In this document: in pieces, positions 19,162 to 41,233 of the stretch
Layout: every line of letters starts with the position of its first letter
Position numbering within the stretch: the first letter of the stretch is position 1
Assembly: GCF_044324785.1 (NCBI RefSeq)
Contig: NZ_CP172127.1
Length of the DNA: 64,000 nucleotides
DNA from: Escherichia coli
Lineage (GTDB): Bacteria > Pseudomonadota > Gammaproteobacteria > Enterobacterales > Enterobacteriaceae
Strand: one strand, 5' to 3'
Notes under the pieces: generated by a model
Database searches by the model: none
Seen by the model: only the letters and a program-made list of their open reading frames with translations
What the model was told of the DNA's origin: nothing
Made by a program: the position numbers and the translations under genes

Positions 19162-19842
19162 TCACAGGTTAAAGGTGTTGATAAGTTTATGGATGAAAGA
19201 GAAATGTGGCAGGGCGGAGATAAAACGCTCTTCAGCGACCAGACTGTGGATGTGGCCTCTCCGTTCAAACCGTTCTGATGTCAGGCTGACTGATTTGATA
19301 TCTGCCAGAGGAAAGACCTGCAGTTTTCCCTTCTGTAACGCGATCAGATACCAGCTACCGCTGTAATAAATGAGCCGGCAGGGCTCCAGTGACGGATACC
19401 ATCGCTCAGTCATCAGAGAGATGTGGATACACTGTCTTATTGCCAGGATGAGTTGCGAGAAACACTCGGGGAACGTTGCAGTGATATCCGGCGCCGGTAG
19501 CCAGATAAGGCAGGGAGAGGGCTCCTGGTTGTCGGTAAGACAGGTTATCAGTCGTCCGTTCCGGAGCGGAAGTATCCGTGCGATCCCGGTATTCTGTATA
19601 AAAGAAAGCATTTCAGGGATCGCACCCGGGCTGCTCTGTCGTCTGAGGCTGTACCTGCCATTTCTGTACTCTAAATCCAGGTGAACCAGACGCTGATGAA
19701 AATCGCGCTGTAAAGTACGTTCTGTAACGCCAAATTCATCTGACAGTGTTTTTAGTGACAGAGATTCTCCGGCCATCAGTCGGCTGATAATGAGTGATAA
19801 GCGAACCGCCAGGCGATCATGCCGGGAACGATTATCAGACAT
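19162..19842 (-). CDS. YfjR-like transcriptional regulator (HTH plus WYL-like)
   Basis: 226-aa ORF; N-terminal HTH LSLKTLSDEFGVTERTLQRDF. Confidence 0.6.
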   Translation of the reverse strand: MSDNRSRHDRLAVRLSLIISRLMAGESLSLKTLSDEFGVTERTLQRDFHQRLVHLDLEYRNGRYSLRRQSSPGAIPEMLSFIQNTGIARILPLRNGRLITCLTDNQEPSPCLIWLPAPDITATFPECFSQLILAIRQCIHISLMTERWYPSLEPCRLIYYSGSWYLIALQKGKLQVFPLADIKSVSLTSERFERRGHIHSLVAEERFISALPHFSFIHKLINTFNL

Positions 19843-20044: not shown

Positions 20045-20929
20045 TCAGAACAGACGCTCCCACAGTGTGATCAGCAGGTGGATAATGCGGTCCCGGGCTT
20101 TACGCAGAAGCTGTAACATCCAGGCCGGAAAACTGAAACGGGCAACGGCGACGTCAAAACTTTTCCCGATGGTTTCACCAAAAGTCTGTTGTGCGTGTTT
20201 CTGGGCCTGTTCAGAGCGGTTTTCTCCCCGGATATGTGAATACACCGCGCTGGTTGCCTGTGGTGGCAGTGCGTGGATCATCAGCGACACAAACGCCGGA
20301 AGGTTCCAGCCGACAGGTGCAGCAACGGAGAGTACCGGAAATGATGAAGGGAACAGGGTTGCCACCCGGGCTGTCACCGTCGCCAGTGAGAGCGACTGCT
20401 GACGGGACGGGCATTTTTCTGTGGCATTCCATTCTTCAGCAGGAAACACGCGATCGGCATGGCTGAGAACAAACAGAAAACGCGAGGGATCTGCGCCTTC
20501 ATTCAGTAAAAACTGATGCATGGCAATATCAGCAGCATACGCACGTTCATCAGCCCGCAGGATCCAGATAATCAGATCCAGTTCCGGTAGCAGCTGACGA
20601 TAAAGTGTCCGGTATTCCTGATCATGCTGCGGTGTTTCACCAATGCCGGGCAGATCGACCAGCGTCATTCTGCGTTCACCGAACTGCAGGGTAAGACGAT
20701 GAGCCTGGCGGGTGCAGCCGTTCAGAGGATGTGTGGCGCAGATACGGGACTGAAAAATGGCATTACACAGACTGCTTTTGCCTGTTCCGGATTTACCCAT
20801 AATGCCAATCACGGGCTCGTAATGAATAACACTGTGGAGATGTTCAAGGATTTTCTGGCGAATTTCTTCAGGAAGAAACGTCAGATGTGATTTCACTTGT
20901 GCGGAGAGGGAAGAATGGCTGAATGACAT
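20045..20929 (-). CDS. YeeP/YkfA/YfjP-family GTPase
   Basis: P-loop GIMGKSGTGKSS and DLPGIGE G3 motif. Confidence 0.8.
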   Translation of the reverse strand: MSFSHSSLSAQVKSHLTFLPEEIRQKILEHLHSVIHYEPVIGIMGKSGTGKSSLCNAIFQSRICATHPLNGCTRQAHRLTLQFGERRMTLVDLPGIGETPQHDQEYRTLYRQLLPELDLIIWILRADERAYAADIAMHQFLLNEGADPSRFLFVLSHADRVFPAEEWNATEKCPSRQQSLSLATVTARVATLFPSSFPVLSVAAPVGWNLPAFVSLMIHALPPQATSAVYSHIRGENRSEQAQKHAQQTFGETIGKSFDVAVARFSFPAWMLQLLRKARDRIIHLLITLWERLF

Positions 20930-21034: not shown

Positions 21035-21997
21035 ATGACGGCACAACAAAGTGATGCGCTGCGTGAGATTGCTAATAAGGCCAGAGTTACCACCATTCTT
21101 CAGTGTAAGGCCTGGAAAGATACCCAGCGAATACTGAAGCGCAGCGGACTCGTGTGCAGAGAACGGTCAGAGCCGTTTGATCCGGAGAAACATTTTGACT
21201 GTTATACGGTGCGTTATCTGTACCTGCTTAACATAATGGCACTTGAGCTAAAGTCAGATACACGGATTAAGGTTGAGGTGGGGCAATGGTATCGCATGAC
21301 GGGTAAACGTTTATCACTTAATGTCCCGCCTTTTATGCTGATCCCGCGTAATATCCGGAGAAAAGTGGACGGATTCAGACAATCCAGACAATCAGAAGAT
21401 GAAGCAACCAAAAATCCGCCTCAACCGTTCACGGGCAGTTTGTATAAGGTTTTGAGCAGGGACAGCGATTCGGCTGAGCTGGACGCCTGGTTTGCTGAAC
21501 CGCCGCTGACACGGCAGGAAGTGTGGGAGGGGAGGCGTGTTACAGATTTTGATCCATGGGCGCTGTCTTCGTTTATTTGCCGTTCAGAATCCCCGACGTT
21601 TGAACTTTTTTACCAGGAATATAAGCGACTGGGATTAAAATCTCTTTTTGTATCAGGGGTAATGTTTGAACAGTTTTTAACAGGGCTAAGTTTCAGAAAA
21701 TATGGGGACTGGGTTGAATCTCAGTTACTGGAATCACTGGGAAATGTGATGTTTTTCATGCTGCTTTATGACATGGAAAATCTGGATAAGTTTATAAAAG
21801 AACTGATGGACATTAATGTTCAAAGTGAAGATTCGAAGGAAAAAGGGAAATCACGAAAAGAGAGAATGCTGGAGTATATCAACTCATATATCCGCAATGT
21901 TTATGGAAGATTCCTTTGTACGTCAAAAGAAAGGTACGAACAGCATAAACGCAAAAACAGCAGCAAAAAGAAAAACGGTTCTGGTGGAACTCATTAA
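21035..21997 (+). CDS. Hypothetical protein, no recognisable family; basic Lys/Ser-rich C-terminal tail
   Basis: 320-aa ORF; ATG at 21035 preceded by GGGAGG; stop overlaps stop of convergent ORF. Confidence 0.5.
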   Translation: MTAQQSDALREIANKARVTTILQCKAWKDTQRILKRSGLVCRERSEPFDPEKHFDCYTVRYLYLLNIMALELKSDTRIKVEVGQWYRMTGKRLSLNVPPFMLIPRNIRRKVDGFRQSRQSEDEATKNPPQPFTGSLYKVLSRDSDSAELDAWFAEPPLTRQEVWEGRRVTDFDPWALSSFICRSESPTFELFYQEYKRLGLKSLFVSGVMFEQFLTGLSFRKYGDWVESQLLESLGNVMFFMLLYDMENLDKFIKELMDINVQSEDSKEKGKSRKERMLEYINSYIRNVYGRFLCTSKERYEQHKRKNSSKKKNGSGGTH

Positions 21998-22863
21998 CGG
22001 GAATAATCCCCTGCTGTTTTCTGCATAAACAGACGATCAGCTGATAAGATGAGTTTATCCAGCATTTCAGCCTGCGTCAGATTATTCTTTTTTGCCATTT
22101 TCCGGAGTGCATTCCTGGCTTCCGGAGAAATCAGGGCACTTATCTGTACCCGGGAATCGGTTTTCTCATACCGGAACATTTTCTGGTATGAGCACTTCAT
22201 GCGCCTGAGAAAATCATTCTGCTGATAAACTAATTCTTTTAACTTTTGAGGTTCAGTACCGACAGAATAGATTTTCATGAAGACACGGCGCACATAAGCT
22301 ATTATGAACAGACGTGACTCCCCTGAAGCTTTAAATTCTGAAATATCAGGACAGTGACGTTCTTCGTCAGTGCAATGTTTTTGCAGATACGCCCATGCCC
22401 ATTTGATATGTATCCGCCGGGAACCAAGCCATGTCATGGGGTTCACTTTTTCAGCATATGACCATAAAAAATGAACGACATACAAGAAGTCAGATACATT
22501 TTCTGTCCCGGTTAGCCTTATAAGCTCCTGTAGCCATTTTCTCGTCACACGAATCCTTGCCTGATGATTAGCTGGAGCTGCTTCTGTGGCAAACAGTCTG
22601 GCATACAGACAGGAAGTTCCGTAATCTGCATATTGCTCACCTGAGAGTCGGACAATACTGTCAGGAACATGATATATAAACATCCATACCCAGAATGCGG
22701 CTACAGGGTCTTTTTGCACCCACTCCGGAACAACGTCTCTGCCTGCATTATCAGCATTAACAGAAGGTGATTTATCGTTATGTCGGTAATATTCATATTC
22801 CATCCGACTAAAAACATGATCAGATTCATCTGGTGAATGCACAGACATGAACTCCCTGGGCAT
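21994..22863 (-). CDS. Hypothetical protein with C-terminal RHH-like segment
   Basis: 289-aa ORF; C-terminal SPEARNALRKMAKKNNLTQAEMLDKLI; alternative start at Met6 (22848) preceded by AGGGAG. Confidence 0.5.
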   Translation of the reverse strand: MPREFMSVHSPDESDHVFSRMEYEYYRHNDKSPSVNADNAGRDVVPEWVQKDPVAAFWVWMFIYHVPDSIVRLSGEQYADYGTSCLYARLFATEAAPANHQARIRVTRKWLQELIRLTGTENVSDFLYVVHFLWSYAEKVNPMTWLGSRRIHIKWAWAYLQKHCTDEERHCPDISEFKASGESRLFIIAYVRRVFMKIYSVGTEPQKLKELVYQQNDFLRRMKCSYQKMFRYEKTDSRVQISALISPEARNALRKMAKKNNLTQAEMLDKLILSADRLFMQKTAGDYSR

Positions 22864-23810
22864 AAATGCACAACCAACTCTATAGAACTCTTTACCCCCC
22901 CTCTTATCACCTCTGTCAGTAAATTTCGCCTGAATCCCCTTTTATCCATACATCAGAAAAAATGCAATAACGTTCATGGACTCTTTTCTCTGATTTACAT
23001 AAAAACACAGAAAATTACAATGTGATTAATATCGCGTTTTTTTAAAAAATTATATTGACATCATGTTATTTCCTGTAGTTTGCAATAAAAAATTTTCTTA
23101 AAATATTTATATGAATATTTTTGATGCCTCAACATGCTGTCGTTATATAGAGTGTCTTCTCATCATTTATGGTTATTTCTCTCAATGCGCATACGCTCTG
23201 TCAGGGCATGTCTGTAGCTGCCATGATGGGGAATGAGAACTCAGCAAAAGGATTTTGGATGCAGTGAAGTTCTCCCGGAGACGGTTCTTCTGAGGTGGGG
23301 GTGGCATCATATCCTCTTACATAAGATGATGGCGTGCGCGGGAAAGCTTTCTTCTGTACTCAGGTTGTTGTTGGTTATCCCCGGTCGTCATTGTTTTCCT
23401 GACATTAAGATCCTGATTCCAGGATCTATAGCACAGTCGTTTCCTTGTGTGCTGTTATGCTTCTGCTCAGTTCAGAACAATTGCTTCATCCGGCATGGAG
23501 AATTCCGGTGAGTGAGGCAGTAAGAAATGACTGACATGAATGTTATATGTGAAGGGGCCGGAGAGACGTCATAATCAGTATGGCTGTCATTCTGGCTGGA
23601 AAATGCGATCACTTTCCGGGGTAAAAGACAACATGGAAGCTGACGAACGGGATGCTCCGGATGGTCTTTTCAGGGAGGCCTGGGTAAATAATTTCAGAGT
23701 AAATCTGTATGTTTTTTAAACAGTAAAGATCCATGCTGGCCGTGAAAAACTGAAATCAACACTCAGTCTGCATGGATGTCTGAAGATGTTGAGAATGTCG
23801 GGAATGGTAC

Positions 23811-23954
23811 TATACACGTATTTTACTAAGTATTTTTACTAAGCATTTCAGTAAGTGTTATACACGTATTTTCTACTAAGTGTTTTACCAGACATACACG
23901 TATTTTCATAAACACTTCTACAAGTGTTTTCGTTAAGCATTGCTATACACATCC
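23811..23954. repeat. Iteron-like direct repeats in a 1.6 kb AT-rich non-coding region
   Basis: TATACACGTATTTT at 23811 and 23859, ATACACGTATTTT at 23894, degenerate CTATACACATCC at 23943; interspersed ACTAAG and AAGTGTT motifs. Confidence 0.6.
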
Positions 23955-24468
23955 AGTTTAGTAAATCTTTACGTTAACTAAATCAGTTTAATGCTGCTGT
24001 AAAACCTTTCTGTTTAAGCAATCAATCTGCTATTCGATTTTACTGATGTTACGTTTAACCTTTCCTTAGATTTCGAGTTTCGACGTTAGCTTGAGAAAAG
24101 TATCTTTACGTAAAGCCCAGTGAATTAACTCAAATCCGATTGAGGTAACCTGATGCGATTTACTGTGAGTTTGCGATAACACTGTTAAATGGCTTATGGA
24201 TGATTTTGTAACGGCGAGATTGATAAGGTGATTAACTGGCCCTGGTGTTTTTTCTCAGCGTAAGGTGATTATCTTCATCATAAGGCTCTTTTCAGAAAAA
24301 GTGTGATGATTGGTTGTGGTGTTTTGATTCAGATGAGGATCTGCCAATGATTATGATGTATTGTAAGAAATAACGCCTTCAGAATGTTGGAGCATGCACT
24401 TACACAAACTGTTTTTCTAAAATTAAGGGAACAGTTTAAAGAGTATAAACTGTTCATCTTCTTCAGGA

Positions 24469-24999
24469 TTAAGCTACATTGTTGTTATGACTGACAGGAT
24501 TGTTTTCTTCCCCTGACTCTGGGCTTAACAGTCCCTGGCGTTGTAGATATTCACTGACTGACATTCCAGAACTACGGATCCTGTCAGAGATTTTACGAAA
24601 TTGATCCTTCCATTCTGCAGGTAATTTCTTAATTTGTCTGACTTTACAGGCTACACTGTACGGGGTTCGCCCTAGTTTCTCTGCCAGCCAGAAAAGGTGT
24701 TTACCAATTTCATCGTCCGGTACATCCTCCAGAACATCTCGCAATAAACTCTCGTCTGCCTCATTCCATGCCACACCAGCATTTGGGAAACGAGGATCGA
24801 TCTCTCTTTCCTTCTTCTCCTTCTTACTTTGCTCTTTTCGGGATGATACAGATACGACAGAACGTTCTTTTACCGCTGTAATTGCCATAACTGCATTGAG
24901 CAGAGATCTGCGCTCCACATCGTTCAGCATTTTTCCTTCACAGATCAAATCATTCAGGATGTCAATGACTAGATTCAGACTTTCTTCTGTTAGCTTCAT
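24469..24999 (-). CDS. Hypothetical protein, possible DNA-binding (helix-rich, acidic and basic patches)
   Basis: 176-aa ORF; ATG at 24999 with AAGG upstream; 10-bp perfect inverted repeat just 3' of the gene. Confidence 0.5.
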   Translation of the reverse strand: MKLTEESLNLVIDILNDLICEGKMLNDVERRSLLNAVMAITAVKERSVVSVSSRKEQSKKEKKEREIDPRFPNAGVAWNEADESLLRDVLEDVPDDEIGKHLFWLAEKLGRTPYSVACKVRQIKKLPAEWKDQFRKISDRIRSSGMSVSEYLQRQGLLSPESGEENNPVSHNNNVA

Positions 25000-25668
25000 A
25001 TTTCAGACCTTGAAGTATGTAGATAATCAGCACAATTACTAATGTGATAAATATCAGAAGATAATTTACAGGTAAACCGGAAAATACATCTGAAGAATAA
25101 AGGCCTCAGCTTAACGTTTCAGCCAGTTTGTGAGCTGATTGAGGTACGGCGATGACATTAACGGGAATTACTCCCCTATAGCTCTGAGCTTATTTTTCAC
25201 CCTGGCAACATATGGTGGCTACTGCGCATGGTTTTGGAGTAGATATCTTACTACTCGTAGAATTGTGCTTACTGGTCAGGCCAGCGCACAGGCATTCCGT
25301 GCAATCAATAGAACACTGGTTTTTTAGTCTTCCGTTACCCATCAGGATGTTAGTGCAGATTCCGGTGTATTCGATCAGTTGTTCGGCGAATCAGCGATCG
25401 ATCACGATGCGATTTCGTATGTTAGGGATGCTGGTATGATTACTCGCTGAAAAATAATGTGAAAAGGCAGTTTTTCTTTAGACATTTAGCTCATTCATGC
25501 TGTTGTTTTACGTTTTGCTGTCGTGTGCAGGATTATCTTTTCGTTACGGGACGATTCATTCCGTTTTAATCAGGAGCTATTGGCGTTGCTCATTGGTGGG
25601 ATGCCGTAAAGTTTTACCGCGGCGATTAATGATGTGAAGTCAATCCAAATCAACGGAGATCTCTCATC

Positions 25669-26400
25669 ATGAATCAACCAATACACAATGATTACTGGTT
25701 ATCCCGTTTTGAAAGTATTCTCAACAGTGCCCTGGTGCAACACCGTGCCGTCTCGTTAATCCGGGTGGATTTACGTTTCCCTGAGCATATGCCTGTCACC
25801 ATCATGGATCCCGATCCGGATTCAGCGGTGATTTCTCGTTTTTTCGAATCCCTGAAAGCCAAAATTCAGGCTTACCAGCGGAAAAAACGACGTACCAACA
25901 AGCGTGTGCGTGCAACCACCCTGCATTATTTCTGGTGTCGGGAGTTTGGCAAGGAAAAAGGCAGGAAACATTATCACGTGATATTACTGCTCAACAAAGA
26001 TACCTGGTGCTCGCCAGGGGATTTCACCGTTCCTTCTTCGCTGGCGACGCTGATCCAACTGGCATGGTGTAGCGCTCTGCATCTTGAGCCCTGGCAGGGT
26101 AATGGACTGGTTCATTTTTCCAGGCGGACGCCTTTCCGTAAACCGGCATCATCTGATGCTCGCCCTTCTTCCGATGATACGCCTTTGTCGGGTGGATGTT
26201 CTGAAACCAGGAAGGCTTCAGACAAAAAGCCGGGTGAAGCCGCTGTTCTCTGGATCAAGCGTGGTGATGTGGAAGCGATGCAGAAAGCCATGGAGAGAGC
26301 CCGTTATCTCGTGAAGTATGAGACGAAGCAGCATGACGGTTCTGGTCAACGTAATTATGGTTGCAGCCGTGGAGCGGGGCGTCTACTGGATGGCAGGTGA
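25669..26400 (+). CDS. Gp2/YagK-like family paralog (HYHV motif)
   Basis: 243-aa ORF; RKHYHVILLLNKDTWCSPGD; ACGGAGAT upstream of ATG. Confidence 0.5.
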   Translation: MNQPIHNDYWLSRFESILNSALVQHRAVSLIRVDLRFPEHMPVTIMDPDPDSAVISRFFESLKAKIQAYQRKKRRTNKRVRATTLHYFWCREFGKEKGRKHYHVILLLNKDTWCSPGDFTVPSSLATLIQLAWCSALHLEPWQGNGLVHFSRRTPFRKPASSDARPSSDDTPLSGGCSETRKASDKKPGEAAVLWIKRGDVEAMQKAMERARYLVKYETKQHDGSGQRNYGCSRGAGRLLDGR

Positions 26401-26726: not shown

Positions 26727-28331
26727 ATGAATTCCGCTTATATGCAATCCTTGCAGACATCCCACCACTTCCCAGCTGATTTAACCTACAGATTATTTCC
26801 TAGTGAGCTTGCATATCTCATTGACGACTTATATGAAAGTACCCAACTTCCGCTGGAGCTCATTTTTAATACTGTACTGGCAACGCTCTCACTCTCCTGT
26901 CAGTCACTGGTTGACGTTGTTCATCCTCACACCAACATGCCGGAACCCTGCTCACTTTATCTGTTGGCAATCGCAGAGCCAGGCGCGGGAAAAACAACGA
27001 TAAACAGACTGGTGATGAACCCCTGTTACGAATTTGCCGATCGACTCATTCAACAATACGAAGAGAGAAACAAAGATTATAAGACTGAACTACAGATCTG
27101 GAATACCCGGCAGAAAGCGCTTGCTGCCAATTTAAGAAAGGCTGTTAACCGGGGGTATCCGGGGGAACAGGAAGAAGAGGCGCTGCGTAATCACGAAAGA
27201 AATAAACCGACACGTCCGGTTCGACCGAATTTTATCTATGAAGATGTTTCGCTTAAAGCGCTTGTGGAAGGGCTCAATGAACATCCTGAGGCAGGGGTTA
27301 TTTCTGACGAGGCGGTCACTTTTTTCAGAAGCTATCTGAAAAATTATCCGGGCCTGTTGAATAAAGCATGGAGTGGACAACCGTTTGATTTTGGACGGGC
27401 TGACGAGAAATACCATATCACGCCACGTCTGACATTTTCGTTAATGTCCCAGCCGGATGTCTTTACGAATTATATAAATAAAAATGACGTACTGGCGTGG
27501 GGAAGCGGATTTCTTTCCCGGTTTCTGTTCAGTCAGACCGGAAGTCCTTCCCGGGTACGGGATTATACGAGAGGCGAGTTCAGAACAAAACCAACCCTGG
27601 AGAAGTTTCATAAAAAGATTAACGGATTTCTGTTAAGCCATAACATTAATTCCCCCGGTATGAGCACCGAAAGGAAAACATTAAAACTTGCAAAGAAAGC
27701 GTTGGGGGAGTGGCAGGAAAACCAGATTAAGATTGAAAGAAAAGCGCTTGCAGGAGGGGAGTGGGAACACATCAGAGATATTGTTCTGAAAGCAGGTTCT
27801 AATATACTGAGGATAGCTGGAATATTCACCTGCTATTGCTATAAAGATGCTGAGGAAATTGAATCAATTGCGCTTTTTAAAGCTATGCATCTCATGGACT
27901 GGTATCTGGAGGAGGCGAGCACAATATTTTATCCCATGTCTGCACGATGCCAGTTTGAACAGGATGCCTGTGAACTGTATGCATGGATTATGACCCGAAT
28001 AAGGCAGAATAATTGGCGTGCTATCAGGAAAACAGACATTGAAAGATATGGTCCCAATCGTCTGAGAAGAGCAGAAAAACTTACACCTGTACTCAATCAG
28101 TTAATCGCTCAAAATTATTTCCGTATCATCAAGATGCGATCGCATCAGGCACTTTATGTTTCTGCTCTTGATAATAATGGTTACATCCTTCCTTTCGGCG
28201 CAATGTCTTACGAACCGTTTGATATTGTTCCACCCCAGTATAACCATAATGCGAAAACATATTCCGTTGTTATTCCACCGGCATTAATTCAGTCATTTAC
28301 ACCTGATTCCTCAGCTTACACCTTATTTTAA
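26727..28331 (+). CDS. YfjI-like P-loop protein (DUF3987-like), putative NTPase
   Basis: 534-aa ORF; Walker A AEPGAGKTT; strong SD GAAGGAGG. Confidence 0.6.
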   Translation: MNSAYMQSLQTSHHFPADLTYRLFPSELAYLIDDLYESTQLPLELIFNTVLATLSLSCQSLVDVVHPHTNMPEPCSLYLLAIAEPGAGKTTINRLVMNPCYEFADRLIQQYEERNKDYKTELQIWNTRQKALAANLRKAVNRGYPGEQEEEALRNHERNKPTRPVRPNFIYEDVSLKALVEGLNEHPEAGVISDEAVTFFRSYLKNYPGLLNKAWSGQPFDFGRADEKYHITPRLTFSLMSQPDVFTNYINKNDVLAWGSGFLSRFLFSQTGSPSRVRDYTRGEFRTKPTLEKFHKKINGFLLSHNINSPGMSTERKTLKLAKKALGEWQENQIKIERKALAGGEWEHIRDIVLKAGSNILRIAGIFTCYCYKDAEEIESIALFKAMHLMDWYLEEASTIFYPMSARCQFEQDACELYAWIMTRIRQNNWRAIRKTDIERYGPNRLRRAEKLTPVLNQLIAQNYFRIIKMRSHQALYVSALDNNGYILPFGAMSYEPFDIVPPQYNHNAKTYSVVIPPALIQSFTPDSSAYTLF

Positions 28332-28930
28332 AACAATTTTGTGAGTAGAAAACGAAAATCATAATCCTTCGAATGAAGGTTGATGATAAGGTGTGTTGCA
28401 TATCCTGCACCTGTGCAAATATTCACCAATTATTGGGTGTGAATGAAAATTTCTCTGAAAAAATCGCTATGGTAGCAACAGTAGCAGCACATACACTACA
28501 TCTGTGATTTGGTTTTGTTTTCATAATGACCTGCTGTCAGAGCTGATTGAATGCTGGGATGTGCGCACTGGTGGAAGAGTGGTTTTCGTTTCAGATATAA
28601 CGAAAGGCAATCGAAAGATTGTTTTAAACATGGATTAAAGCTAATCATTAACCATATTGTGTGAGTTTTTATATATAAGTTTGTTTGATTCTTGCCGTGA
28701 TGAGTGCTGGGGTATATGACGATGTCGCTCTCTTTCTGAATAACAAATTATTATTCGTCTGTTACTGATAAGGGATGCGATTCATGTTTTAATAGATGGT
28801 TGAAGAAAATTAATTTGATATTTTTTTTGTAAGGGAATGGAACTGTCCGGAATATGTTCAGAACGGCGGATTTCTCATTTCCATTCATTAAACATGGATA
28901 ATTTTAATTTAGGTTTATTACTATTATTAT

Positions 28931-29047
28931 ACTCACTCCCTTTTTGATATAATCTCTATTGTTATTTACTTCCTGTCTTTACTCACTCCCTTTTTCATAC
29001 AATCTCTATTGTTATTTACTTCCTGTCTTTACTCACTCTCTATCTTT
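28931..29047. repeat. Tandem 50-bp direct repeat: two copies plus a partial third
   Basis: 28931-28980 and 28981-29030 differ at 2 positions; partial third copy ACTCACTCTCTATCTTT. Confidence 0.7.
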
Positions 29048-29920: not shown

Positions 29921-30487
29921 ATGCCTAAATCTTACACACCAAACTGGTTTTTTACCGCTTTACTTGACAATCACATCAATCAAATGATGGCACGCTATTC
30001 CTGCCTGCGGGCCTTACGGATGGATTTCTTCTACAGGAAAGATACGCCTGATTTCTTACAACCTGATCATCGCTGGCTTGAATTGCAGTTGCGTATGCTG
30101 CTGGAGCAGGTGGAACAATTTGAAAATATCGTTGGTTTCTTCTGGGTGATTGAATGGACGGCTGATCATGGTTTTCATGCGCATGTGGTTTTCTGGATCG
30201 ATCGTCAGAGGGTTAAAAAAATATATCCCTTTGCGGAGCGGATAGCGGAATGCTGGCGGTCTATTACGCATAACAGCGGTTCGGCACACCGCTGTACATA
30301 TCAGCCGCATTATACATACAACATCAACATTCCTGTGCGCCACAACGATCCTGAAAGCATCGATAATATTCGCGGTGCCCTGCATTATCTGGCAAAAGAA
30401 GAGCAAAAAGACGGGCTGTGTGCCTACGGCTGCAATGAAGTTCCTGAACGTCCTGCTGCAGGGCGTCCTCGTAAGCCTCACTTCTGA
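29921..30487 (+). CDS. YagK/YfjJ-family protein (inovirus Gp2-like)
   Basis: 188-aa ORF; HGFHAHVVFWIDRQ H-x-H motif; paralog of ORF at 798. Confidence 0.65.
   Translation: MPKSYTPNWFFTALLDNHINQMMARYSCLRALRMDFFYRKDTPDFLQPDHRWLELQLRMLLEQVEQFENIVGFFWVIEWTADHGFHAHVVFWIDRQRVKKIYPFAERIAECWRSITHNSGSAHRCTYQPHYTYNINIPVRHNDPESIDNIRGALHYLAKEEQKDGLCAYGCNEVPERPAAGRPRKPHF

Positions 30488-40036: not shown

Positions 40037-41233
<1,197 letters not shown>

Follow-up and report, generated by a model that had tools for sequence, protein, structure and literature searches.

An array of short direct repeats occupies positions 23811-23954 (plus strand) of a 64,000-nucleotide stretch of the Escherichia coli contig NZ_CP172127.1, referred to below as the window. 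It lies in non-coding DNA of a genomic island, upstream of a gene encoding a protein of the inovirus Gp2 family. An earlier note on this DNA had called the repeats iteron-like and had compared them with the binding-site arrays of replication initiators or regulators. The question raised by the locus is which protein, if any, such repeats serve, and in what process. From the comparisons reported here, the array may well be the repeat-rich, AT-rich arm of an origin-like cis site belonging to the island's Gp2/YagJ/YagK/YfjJ-family protein, an assignment that we hold with slightly less than even confidence. It is favoured because of the linkage of the array to Gp2, the nature of Gp2 and of its neighbour YfjI, the strand- and position-specific conservation of a core sequence in distant relatives, and the recurrence of arrays upstream of other Gp2 genes.

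The repeat array and its variation between alleles

When the whole window was searched, three exact copies of ATACACGTATTTT were found, all of them in the array and on the plus strand (23812-23824, 23860-23872 and 23894-23906; 48 and 34 nt apart). This sequence had no match in any of 100 dinucleotide-preserving shuffles of the window, and allowing up to two mismatches added one single match, far from the array. A degenerate fourth copy, TATACACATCC, is located at 23944-23954. Two shorter motifs are interspersed: ACTAAG, which starts at 23825, 23838 and 23875 (with AGTAAG starting at 23850), and AAGTGTT, which is present three times. The description given in the earlier note, with its three direct repeats, its degenerate fourth copy and its interspersed motifs, was thus accurate. 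The two motif types that it had listed separately are variants of a single unit of 12-13 nt, TAC(T)A[A/C]GT[A/G]TTTT, which ends in a run of T, and the whole is a degenerate 12-13-nt direct-repeat array.

The same periodicity was returned by Tandem Repeats Finder (TRF), which reported for 23811-23888 a period of 13 with 5.2 copies and the consensus TTTTACTAAGTAT, or alternatively a period of 25 with 3.2 copies; the spacings between units in the array are 13, 12, 25, 34 and 48 nt. A repeat finder listed two exact copies of the 14-mer TATACACGTATTTT, one of CATACACGTATTTT, and families based on TTTTACTAAG(T/C)AT. Just three arrays in the 64 kb reached a TRF score of at least 60, and two of them are upstream of the two Gp2-family genes of the window. 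The sole other strong tandem repeat is a perfect hexanucleotide repeat, CTCAGG, of 7.7 copies at 40107-40152.

The ATACAC units resemble DnaA box R2 (TTATACACA), and a perfect one occurs in some alleles. A cluster of DnaA boxes was nevertheless rejected, as the array of the window contains two one-mismatch matches and none that is perfect, for a background of 161 per 64 kb (1 per 400 nt). The array also includes a perfect 8-bp inverted repeat at 23909-23928 (AAACACTT, the 4-nt loop CTAC, AAGTGTTT), but this hairpin is broken in most related alleles and is not conserved.

The array is part of a conserved non-coding block of 650 bp, 23686-24337, which was delimited by blastn against 11 related E. 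coli loci. On its left side, homology in pairwise comparisons begins at 23683-23686, except in one island type, where its left limit is 23487-23517; the right edge is at 24337 in islands where an optional module, described below, is absent. Between the flanks GAGAATGTC and CACATCCAGTTT, which are invariant among ten distinct E. coli alleles, the length of the array ranges from 138 to 241 bp, each allele containing 1-5 ATACAC(G/A)(T/C) units and 1-6 A[CGT]TAAG units. Copy number is thus polymorphic in otherwise collinear alleles, as in a minisatellite. Outside the array, runs of invariant columns were observed in the E. coli alignment (A1), namely TTGAGAATGTC and the short stretches ACATCCAGTTT, CTGTTTAAG and GTTTAACCTTT, the last three in the right part of the block (23955-24337). 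For the same pairs of islands, the block is 75-80% conserved versus 90-93% for the Gp2 region.

The 401 nt around the array gave 2,524 matches in 1,864 of 5,426 complete E. coli genomes, with 71-100% identity and none of them annotated; at least 80% of 23700-24100 was covered in 1,839 genomes, and the full 1.57-kb tract was common to only 69. Absence of the repeats from homologous islands, which the earlier note had named among its refuting observations, was thus not seen: they are kept, with varying copy number, in those of about one third of the complete genomes. E. coli K-12 was rejected as a test bed, since the block is absent from CP4-57 and CP4-6 and IS1 lies ahead of yagJ.

A conserved core bordering the array on its left

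The first TATACAC unit of the E. coli array overlaps the 3' end of a second element, which the earlier note had missed. This core, at 23795-23817 on the plus strand, reads AATGTCGGGAATGGTACTATACAC in the window and is orthologous to GAATGTCGGTATGATACTATATAC in other E. coli islands; GTCGGTATGATAC is likewise a core allele other than that of the window. The family consensus, to which it is also orthologous, is TGT(C/T)GGTATAGTAATATA, about 18 nt in length. In alignment A1, TTGAGAATGTC-GG is invariant, and the window and four other loci carry, at orthologous columns, a diverged core, GTCGGGAATGGTAC--TATACAC.

In a set of 79 Gp2 loci taken from one-genome-per-species contigs, the core was found on the Gp2 strand, 125-530 nt upstream of the Gp2 start codon, across Gamma- and Betaproteobacteria. 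Its carriers belong to Enterobacterales, Morganellaceae, Budviciaceae, Vibrio, Psychromonas, Alcanivorax, Hydrogenovibrio, Thiomicrorhabdus, Alcaligenes and others, and the Gp2 proteins of core-bearing lineages are 27-55% identical. In 83 loci, the strict pattern GT[CT]GGTATAG had 21 occurrences between -700 and -60 on the Gp2 strand, versus 3 in the remaining 1.26 Mb, both strands included. After related loci had been collapsed to 47 clusters, 8 strict matches were in this zone and 1 elsewhere, for 0.04 expected (P 2.5e-16); with a relaxed pattern, 22 matches were obtained versus 1.15 expected, in 20 of the 47 clusters. Upstream of the core, no conserved sequence was found, this region being unalignable in the alignment of 31 lineages (A3).

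A hidden Markov model (HMM) was built from the rows of the other species, leaving out E. coli. In each of eight E. coli loci its best match was exactly the left edge of the array, on the Gp2 strand, with 9.3 bits versus 5.3 for the runner-up, and it found the TATGATAC variant. The E-value of this match (0.39) is not significant alone, and it is the position that carries the weight. The double-strand origin (dso) of rolling-circle replicons has, at or near its nick site, a sequence in cis to rep that is common to the Rep family; the core is a conserved cis sequence of this kind and would be the presumed nick site. The core is a stronger candidate than the array for a specific recognition site.

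The relation between core and array was seen in other genera as well. In Budvicia and Limnobaculum, (A/T)TGTCGGTTTGTTTA, a sequence similar to the E. coli flank GAATGTCGGTATGATAC, immediately precedes the tandem array. The idea that the array reiterates the 3' half of the core family-wide was rejected, since probes made from each locus's own core gave 13 downstream matches for 13.7 expected. Short dyads, GGTATA..TATACC, were observed in some lineages only (GGTATAGT..ACTATACC in locus L036, GGTATAGTAATATACC in L050). In six Morganellaceae islands (L018, L027, L028, L031, L033 and L046), a second motif, TTACC(C/T)TGTCAC, is present about 55-70 nt 3' of the core.

Viral contigs were also scanned with the core pattern. 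The 36 matches obtained are about the number given by a rough chance estimate, and two of them have a Gp2 gene 206-281 nt downstream. Both are on IMG/VR contigs of 50-55 kb (L117, 1663-2447; L137, 3213-4072), and their Gp2 homologues are 45-49% identical to the best family member. It may be that islands were wrongly classed as prophages here, or that these contigs are genuine relatives associated with phages.

Linkage of the array to Gp2

The Gp2/YagJ-type protein of the window (243 aa) is encoded at 25669-26400 on the plus strand. In the window, it is separated from the block by an optional inserted module of 1.15 kb (24338-25491), recognised by its presence or absence in blastn comparisons, which contains a gene for a 176-aa protein (24469-24999, minus strand) and a bidirectional-looking hairpin terminator (24429-24455). 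In five related loci (L004, L006, L008, L011 and L012), this module is absent and position 24337 directly joins sequence homologous to 25492. Because the block directly abuts the Gp2 upstream region where the module is missing, the array belongs with Gp2 and not with the 176-aa gene.

Fourteen contexts of various identity levels were compared, twelve from complete genomes and two reached via Gp2 homologues. The same order was found in all fourteen: the GTPase gene, one or two variable genes, the non-coding block, and Gp2. The contig of L016, one of the fourteen, begins inside the array and does not show what lies to the left of it. In Brenneria, Proteus, Providencia and Morganella, Gp2 homologues with 35-40% identity have the same arrangement. 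In Brenneria and the Morganellaceae, leftward genes (RadC, DUF932, antirestriction, the GTPase and a gene of about 320 aa) face rightward Gp2-AlpA genes across an intergenic gap of 400-750 bp.

The Gp2 and YfjI proteins

The earlier note had pointed to the Gp2/YagK-type and YfjI neighbours as proteins that could act on this DNA, and their sequences agree with it. Gp2 matched the Pfam families YagK_YfjJ_C (5.9e-36) and REP_ORF2-G2P (1e-7). In an alignment of 16 diverse homologues, reaching down to about 41% identity (35% by the local alignment of the search), an HUH motif, H101-Y102-H103, was found within KHYHV(I/L)LLLN, with H101 and H103 the same in every homologue and Y102 in nearly all. An RVDLR motif is also invariant. 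The YxxK motif, Y213-L-V-K216, follows 110 residues after the HUH, and YLxK is kept in all full-length homologues. This order, HUH and then tyrosine, is that of Rep proteins and not that of relaxases. In the same way, the fold matches of Gp2 were HUH nuclease and origin-binding domains of the parvovirus NS1 and adeno-associated virus (AAV) Rep type, with no MOB relaxases among them; a sequence search against solved structures gave no match. Gp2 is thus predicted to be a Rep-class HUH nuclease and is a candidate initiator.

The next gene, at 26727-28331 on the plus strand, encodes a protein of 534 aa annotated in RefSeq as a YfjI family protein, with matches to Pfam DUF3987 (2.1e-74) and to a PHROG family named DNA helicase (5.6e-43). 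Since Gp2 is of the Rep class and YfjI is helicase-like, the gene pair looks like an initiator followed by its helicase.

Arrays upstream of Gp2 genes in other lineages

When TRF was applied to all loci, arrays with periods of 8-36 were concentrated 200-500 nt upstream of Gp2. Their density in Gp2-upstream non-coding DNA was 0.71 per kb versus 0.17 per kb in the other non-coding DNA of the same loci (P 1.6e-9), and 0.54 versus 0.23 per kb when one locus was kept per cluster (P 0.005). The units are diverse: 36 nt in Limnobaculum (4.4 copies), TAATACTG in Budvicia (17 copies, along with a 16-nt unit), 8 nt in a metagenome-assembled genome of Myxococcales (17 copies), 25 and 31 nt in Hydrogenovibrio and Nitratidesulfovibrio, ACACATTTTA in Brenneria (3 copies), and ACGTAGTATTTT (3-4 copies) and TTACGTAGCATT (3 copies) in Proteus and Providencia. 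An array directly follows the core in L030, L045, L047, L089 and L027, and in about half of the array-bearing lineages, E. coli included, it lies no more than 50 nt 3' of the core. An AGT[AG]TT motif common to all lineages was considered and rejected, being enriched in only 6 loci.

The unit of E. coli and that of the Morganellaceae differ at 2 of 12 positions, for Gp2 proteins that are 35% identical, and the chance of such a likeness is roughly P about 0.1 after multiple comparisons. Units otherwise differ between lineages, and even between Gp2 proteins that are 73-92% identical. In Proteus and Providencia, the 12-nt array (L036, 3577-3625; L028, L033, L035 and L037, -425 to -379 from Gp2) is 200 nt from the core and abuts the Shine-Dalgarno sequence of the leftward gene of about 310-320 aa; at this ribosome-binding site it may be an operator.

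A candidate origin-like site and its alternatives

If the array and the core form an origin-like site, the core would be the sequence recognised, and probably nicked, by Gp2. The repeat tract beside it would evolve fast through slippage and duplication, and would offer either extra low-specificity binding sites or a region that is easily bent and melted, comparable to the AT-rich enhancer or 'bind' region that adjoins the nick site in the origins of filamentous phages and rolling-circle plasmids. After excision of the island by its integrase and AlpA, Gp2 would nick the core, a helicase (YfjI/DUF3987 or a host enzyme) would unwind the DNA, and rolling-circle synthesis would amplify the circle, or would produce single strands or concatemers that could be packaged or transferred. 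Conservation of the core and of the array extends to islands in which 1.15 kb of DNA, containing an opposing gene and a terminator, lies between them and Gp2, and this tolerance favours a distance-independent DNA site over a Gp2 promoter. The binding-site array of the earlier note is hence retained in part: the linkage to Gp2, the Rep class of this protein, the arrays of other genera and the abutting core speak for it, whereas the hallmarks of classical iterons (unit length, spacing and DnaA boxes) are lacking and the units do not follow Gp2 relatedness cleanly.

Several observations weigh against an origin-like site. The core variant of the window was recovered neither by the family HMM nor by the position weight matrix (PWM), and the same Gp2 protein, WP_001075491, was found with both core variants. 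No conserved hairpin could be established at the core in alignment A3, and no separate structured single-strand origin was found in 23686-24337, the only block examined. A TRF-detectable array was present in just 12 of the 47 non-redundant clusters and is hence not obligatory; in the other half or so of the array-bearing lineages, it lies 70-450 nt 5' of the core; and Budviciaceae whose Gp2 proteins are 73-92% identical share the core and have unrelated arrays. Of 72,556 plasmids, only 64, mostly large, had a Gp2 homologue; none was detected in a protein scan of viral contigs, and a single one in a phage database, on an unverified 4.5-kb contig. Because Gp2 is so rare on plasmids and near-absent from the phage database, there is no independently replicating relative with which the origin could be compared. 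Finally, no description of the block, the core, the arrays or the replication of such islands was found in the searchable literature.

Among the other explanations, the one that survives best is that of a regulatory hub, which we judge unlikely. Core and array would here be operator and promoter DNA between the divergent leftward backbone operon and the rightward Gp2-(YfjI)-AlpA operon, and would be bound cooperatively by AlpA/Xis-like proteins, a helix-turn-helix (HTH)/WYL protein (19162-19842), Gp2 acting as a mere autorepressor, or H-NS. Proteins that polymerise along DNA, Xis/Cox, ParR, TubR and omega among them, typically have short direct repeats with a period of 12-13 nt as their sites, and the period of the array fits such a protein. 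In E. coli, Brenneria and the Morganellaceae, the site does separate backbone modules that are transcribed divergently, the region is AT-rich (31-34% GC) as is typical of H-NS targets, and the core includes TATAGT, which would make a good -10 hexamer and has a TG before it in the GTTGG variants. The ACGTAGTATTTT array of Proteus and Providencia, which is near the E. coli unit ACTAAGTATTTT and abuts the Shine-Dalgarno sequence and start of a leftward gene, also agrees with an operator, although this likeness is perhaps due to chance, as estimated above. On the other hand, a promoter scan of 23700-24260 returned no promoter-like site, no -35 sequence is conserved and nothing is conserved upstream of the core. 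The core is found anywhere between 125 nt and about 1,870 nt from the Gp2 start, and many E. coli islands have an opposing gene and a terminator in between. In addition, the retention of 18 nt between Beta- and Gammaproteobacteria whose Gp2 proteins are only 27-40% identical exceeds what is usual for a promoter.

It is improbable that the array is a neutral minisatellite, that is, functionless, slippage-prone AT-rich DNA beside a conserved functional core. A neutral array would account for the variation of copy number and unit composition among close islands (138-241 bp), for the GAGTTTT micro-expansion elsewhere in the block of L016, for the unrelated arrays of close Budviciaceae islands, for the 35 of 47 Gp2 clusters without a detectable array, and for the lower conservation of the block relative to the Gp2 region. 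It accounts poorly for the 2.3- to 4-fold enrichment of arrays in Gp2-upstream non-coding DNA, for the position of two of the three arrays of the window upstream of Gp2 paralogues, for the retention of an exact 13-mer three times, and for the similar 12-nt unit of the Morganellaceae. Should the enrichment merely result from errors of nicking or termination next to the core, the location would still be functional.

MOBT relaxases are Rep-type relaxases, and conjugative plasmids are laid out as a leading region, an origin of transfer (oriT) and a relaxase gene. The block could by analogy be an oriT, nicked by Gp2 as a Rep-type relaxase or by the relaxase of a helper conjugative element, with the leftward antirestriction, DUF932 and RadC genes acting as the leading region; we consider this quite improbable. 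The order of anti-restriction genes, a non-coding site and an HUH gene transcribed away from it resembles that layout, a MobH relaxase module is found near some relatives of the island, and islands with an oriT alone have been reported as common (10.64898/2026.01.13.699239). However, Gp2 has its HUH before the tyrosine and a fold that matches Reps and not MOB relaxases, and no conserved inverted repeat of the usual nic-adjacent kind was found flanking the core in alignment A3. Moreover, related Gp2-encoding islands of Pseudomonas move via phage transduction and not conjugation (PMC12595487).

A classical theta-type iteron origin, the literal proposal of the earlier note, in which iterons titrate a plasmid-like initiator next to DnaA boxes and an unwinding element, is highly improbable in spite of direct repeats that adjoin replication-type genes, as the units are degenerate and of 12-13 nt instead of 17-22 nt, their spacing is irregular and out of the 22-nt helical phase, the neighbouring initiator-like protein is an HUH nickase and not a winged-helix Rep, and Gp2 is as rare on plasmids as stated above.

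The non-coding tract and the neighbouring genes

The tract that contains the block, 22864-24468, has no annotated coding sequence in RefSeq genomes that are 99.9% identical, in agreement with the non-coding status given to the repeats in the earlier note. Its description there as 1.6 kb of AT-rich DNA applies to 22900-23200 (26-29% GC) and to the part from 23700 onwards, which includes the repeats (31-39%), but not to 23100-23700 (42-50%). This GC-richer segment, the bulk of which, left of about 23490-23520, is common only to the 69 genomes that share the whole tract, holds open reading frames (ORFs) of 92 aa (23233-23511) and 59 aa (23540-23719) and may be a gene remnant or an unannotated gene.

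Within 23650-24360, no ATG-started ORF of at least 20 aa was intact across all eight relatives tested, and a small protein gene was rejected on this ground. A small RNA was likewise rejected, the tract having no Rfam match at E up to 1 and no structure signal; weak Rfam matches elsewhere, PhotoRC-I at 26092 (inside Gp2) and STnc410 at 22932, were both below the gathering scores. The single-strand folding of 23686-24337 was no better than that of shuffles (z -1.3 and -1.7), and a single-strand origin or a Frpo-like promoter in this block was rejected for lack of a single-stranded DNA structure signal. In L016, where the Gp2 protein shares 67% identity, about 9 heptamer units (GAGTTTT/GTGGTTT) form an expansion at 251-314, a second position in the block that corresponds to about 24069-24085 of the window; a tendency to repeat expansion is thus general in the block.

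The window contains a portion of an E. coli genomic island of the type seen in strain 55989, extending from about 13 to at least 40 kb. Its leftward backbone, entirely on the minus strand, starts with a YfjP/YeeP-type GTPase gene (20045-20929), identified by NCBIfam GTPase matches and by the RefSeq annotation of near-identical genomes, and continues with an HTH regulator, DUF905, DUF932, an antirestriction protein, RadC and a YeeU/CbtA toxin-antitoxin pair. Beyond the GTPase gene are two uncharacterised genes, at 21035-21997 (plus strand) and 21994-22863 (minus strand). The latter, of 289 aa, is the gene that borders the intergenic region on its left. From synteny and a tblastn match (21% identity over 145 aa, E 0.014, with the 319-aa protein of L018), it is possibly the counterpart of the leftward gene of about 320 aa of the Morganellaceae islands. 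Its C-terminal residues 235-274 gave a weak match to the NCBIfam family 'replication regulatory protein RepA' (E 7.5e-5, 22.7 bits for a cutoff of 87). A remnant of the Morganellaceae leftward gene inside the tract was rejected, as tblastn gave no match there.

For the 176-aa protein of the optional module, no confident family was found; a match of residues 132-157 to NikA-like proteins (ribbon-helix-helix relaxosome proteins) was weak (E 0.025). Further to the right, there are a second Gp2-type gene (29921-30487) and an AlpA-like gene (at about 31.4 kb). About 900 nt upstream of the second Gp2-type gene, a 50-nt tandem repeat is located at 28930-29038 (2.2 copies, 96% match), and just before this repeat AGGTTTATTACTATTATTATAC (28905-28930) has a loose likeness to the Budviciaceae core form CGGTTTGTTTATTATTTATAC; AGGTTTATTACTATTATTATAC was not scored by the PWM.

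A possible replication module of chromosomal islands

On excision, related Pseudomonas islands that encode Gp2-like proteins become 'circular or concatenated', and a jumbo phage transduces them (PMC12595487). A 2026 preprint reports an oriT alone in many genomic islands, and a clustering of defence and anti-defence genes in the vicinity of oriTs (10.64898/2026.01.13.699239); neither paper describes the core and array site. We regard it as possible, if rather doubtful, that Gp2, the YfjI/DUF3987 helicase and the core with its array constitute an unrecognised module for rolling-circle replication or replication-coupled transfer. The core would be its nick site, and after excision rolling-circle amplification would supply concatemers or single strands to be carried by helper phages or conjugative elements. 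The array would set the strength or specificity of the origin, or would be a scar of initiation and termination. The module would be common to the large family of integrase/AlpA islands of Proteobacteria, including CP4-like islands, the SRL island, many E. coli pathogenicity and defence islands, and the jumbo-phage-transduced islands of Pseudomonas.

HUH Rep origins in which repeats adjoin a conserved core are well known. The novelty would be that such a site marks a whole family of chromosomal integrase/AlpA islands and goes with a DUF3987 helicase. About one third of the complete E. coli genomes carry islands of this backbone, often in several copies, with virulence, resistance and anti-phage genes as cargo. 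With a defined cis site of about 20 nt, its repeat tract, and a Rep-class nickase and helicase to go with them, the persistence of these islands after excision and their movement become experimentally tractable. Should the proposal be true, it would provide a sequence signature for the replication or transfer origins of related islands in Gamma- and Betaproteobacteria and could explain the 'circular or concatenated' state of the excised Pseudomonas satellites (PMC12595487). A mere regulatory region or minisatellite would be an ordinary finding.

Comparison with known systems

The iterons of plasmids such as P1, F, RK2 and pSC101 are, like the array, clustered direct repeats near replication genes, and they differ from it in length, in the regularity of their spacing, in their DnaA boxes and in the type of initiator. 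In the parvovirus NS1/AAV Rep origin, a Rep-binding element of tandem tetranucleotides lies beside the nick site. These are eukaryotic viruses with hairpin telomeres, their repeat has another unit and another length, and AAV Rep has its own superfamily 3 helicase domain, whereas here a separate DUF3987 protein follows.

Elements of the ICEBs1 type (NicK, HelP) replicate as rolling circles from oriT after excision. They share with the island an integrated state, a Rep-type nickase, possibly one site for replication and transfer, and an accessory helicase function. Their nickase is of the Rep_trans family, and they are conjugative elements of Gram-positive bacteria with their own type IV secretion system, whereas the island has no mating-pair genes in the window.

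The dso of pMV158, recognised by RepB, consists of a nic locus and of a bind locus made of 11-bp direct repeats, an organisation that the core and its adjoining repeats resemble. Here, in contrast, there is no demonstrated nick-site hairpin, and the repeats are degenerate and polymorphic in number; compared with rolling-circle plasmids in general, no single-strand origin was found in the block and Gp2 homologues are near-absent from plasmids.

The (+) origin of the Ff phage, with its gene II protein, differs in that Ff is a 6-kb single-stranded DNA phage, whereas the present site is on a chromosomal island of tens of kb without morphogenesis genes, has a core with no known similarity to the Ff nick region, and has a variable tandem array in place of the auxiliary region. 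The two share a Rep-type nickase encoded just downstream of the site, and a core on the rep strand, a few hundred nt from the rep start, followed by an AT-rich auxiliary region; the Gp2 family even bears the Pfam name and domain REP_ORF2-G2P. In both the Ff (+) origin and the pMV158 dso, a conserved site on the rep strand is associated with an AT-rich region and with the rep gene downstream. By analogy, the geometry of the island site, with its core, its AT-rich region and a rep gene 0.1-0.5 kb downstream, appears to match that of these two origins.

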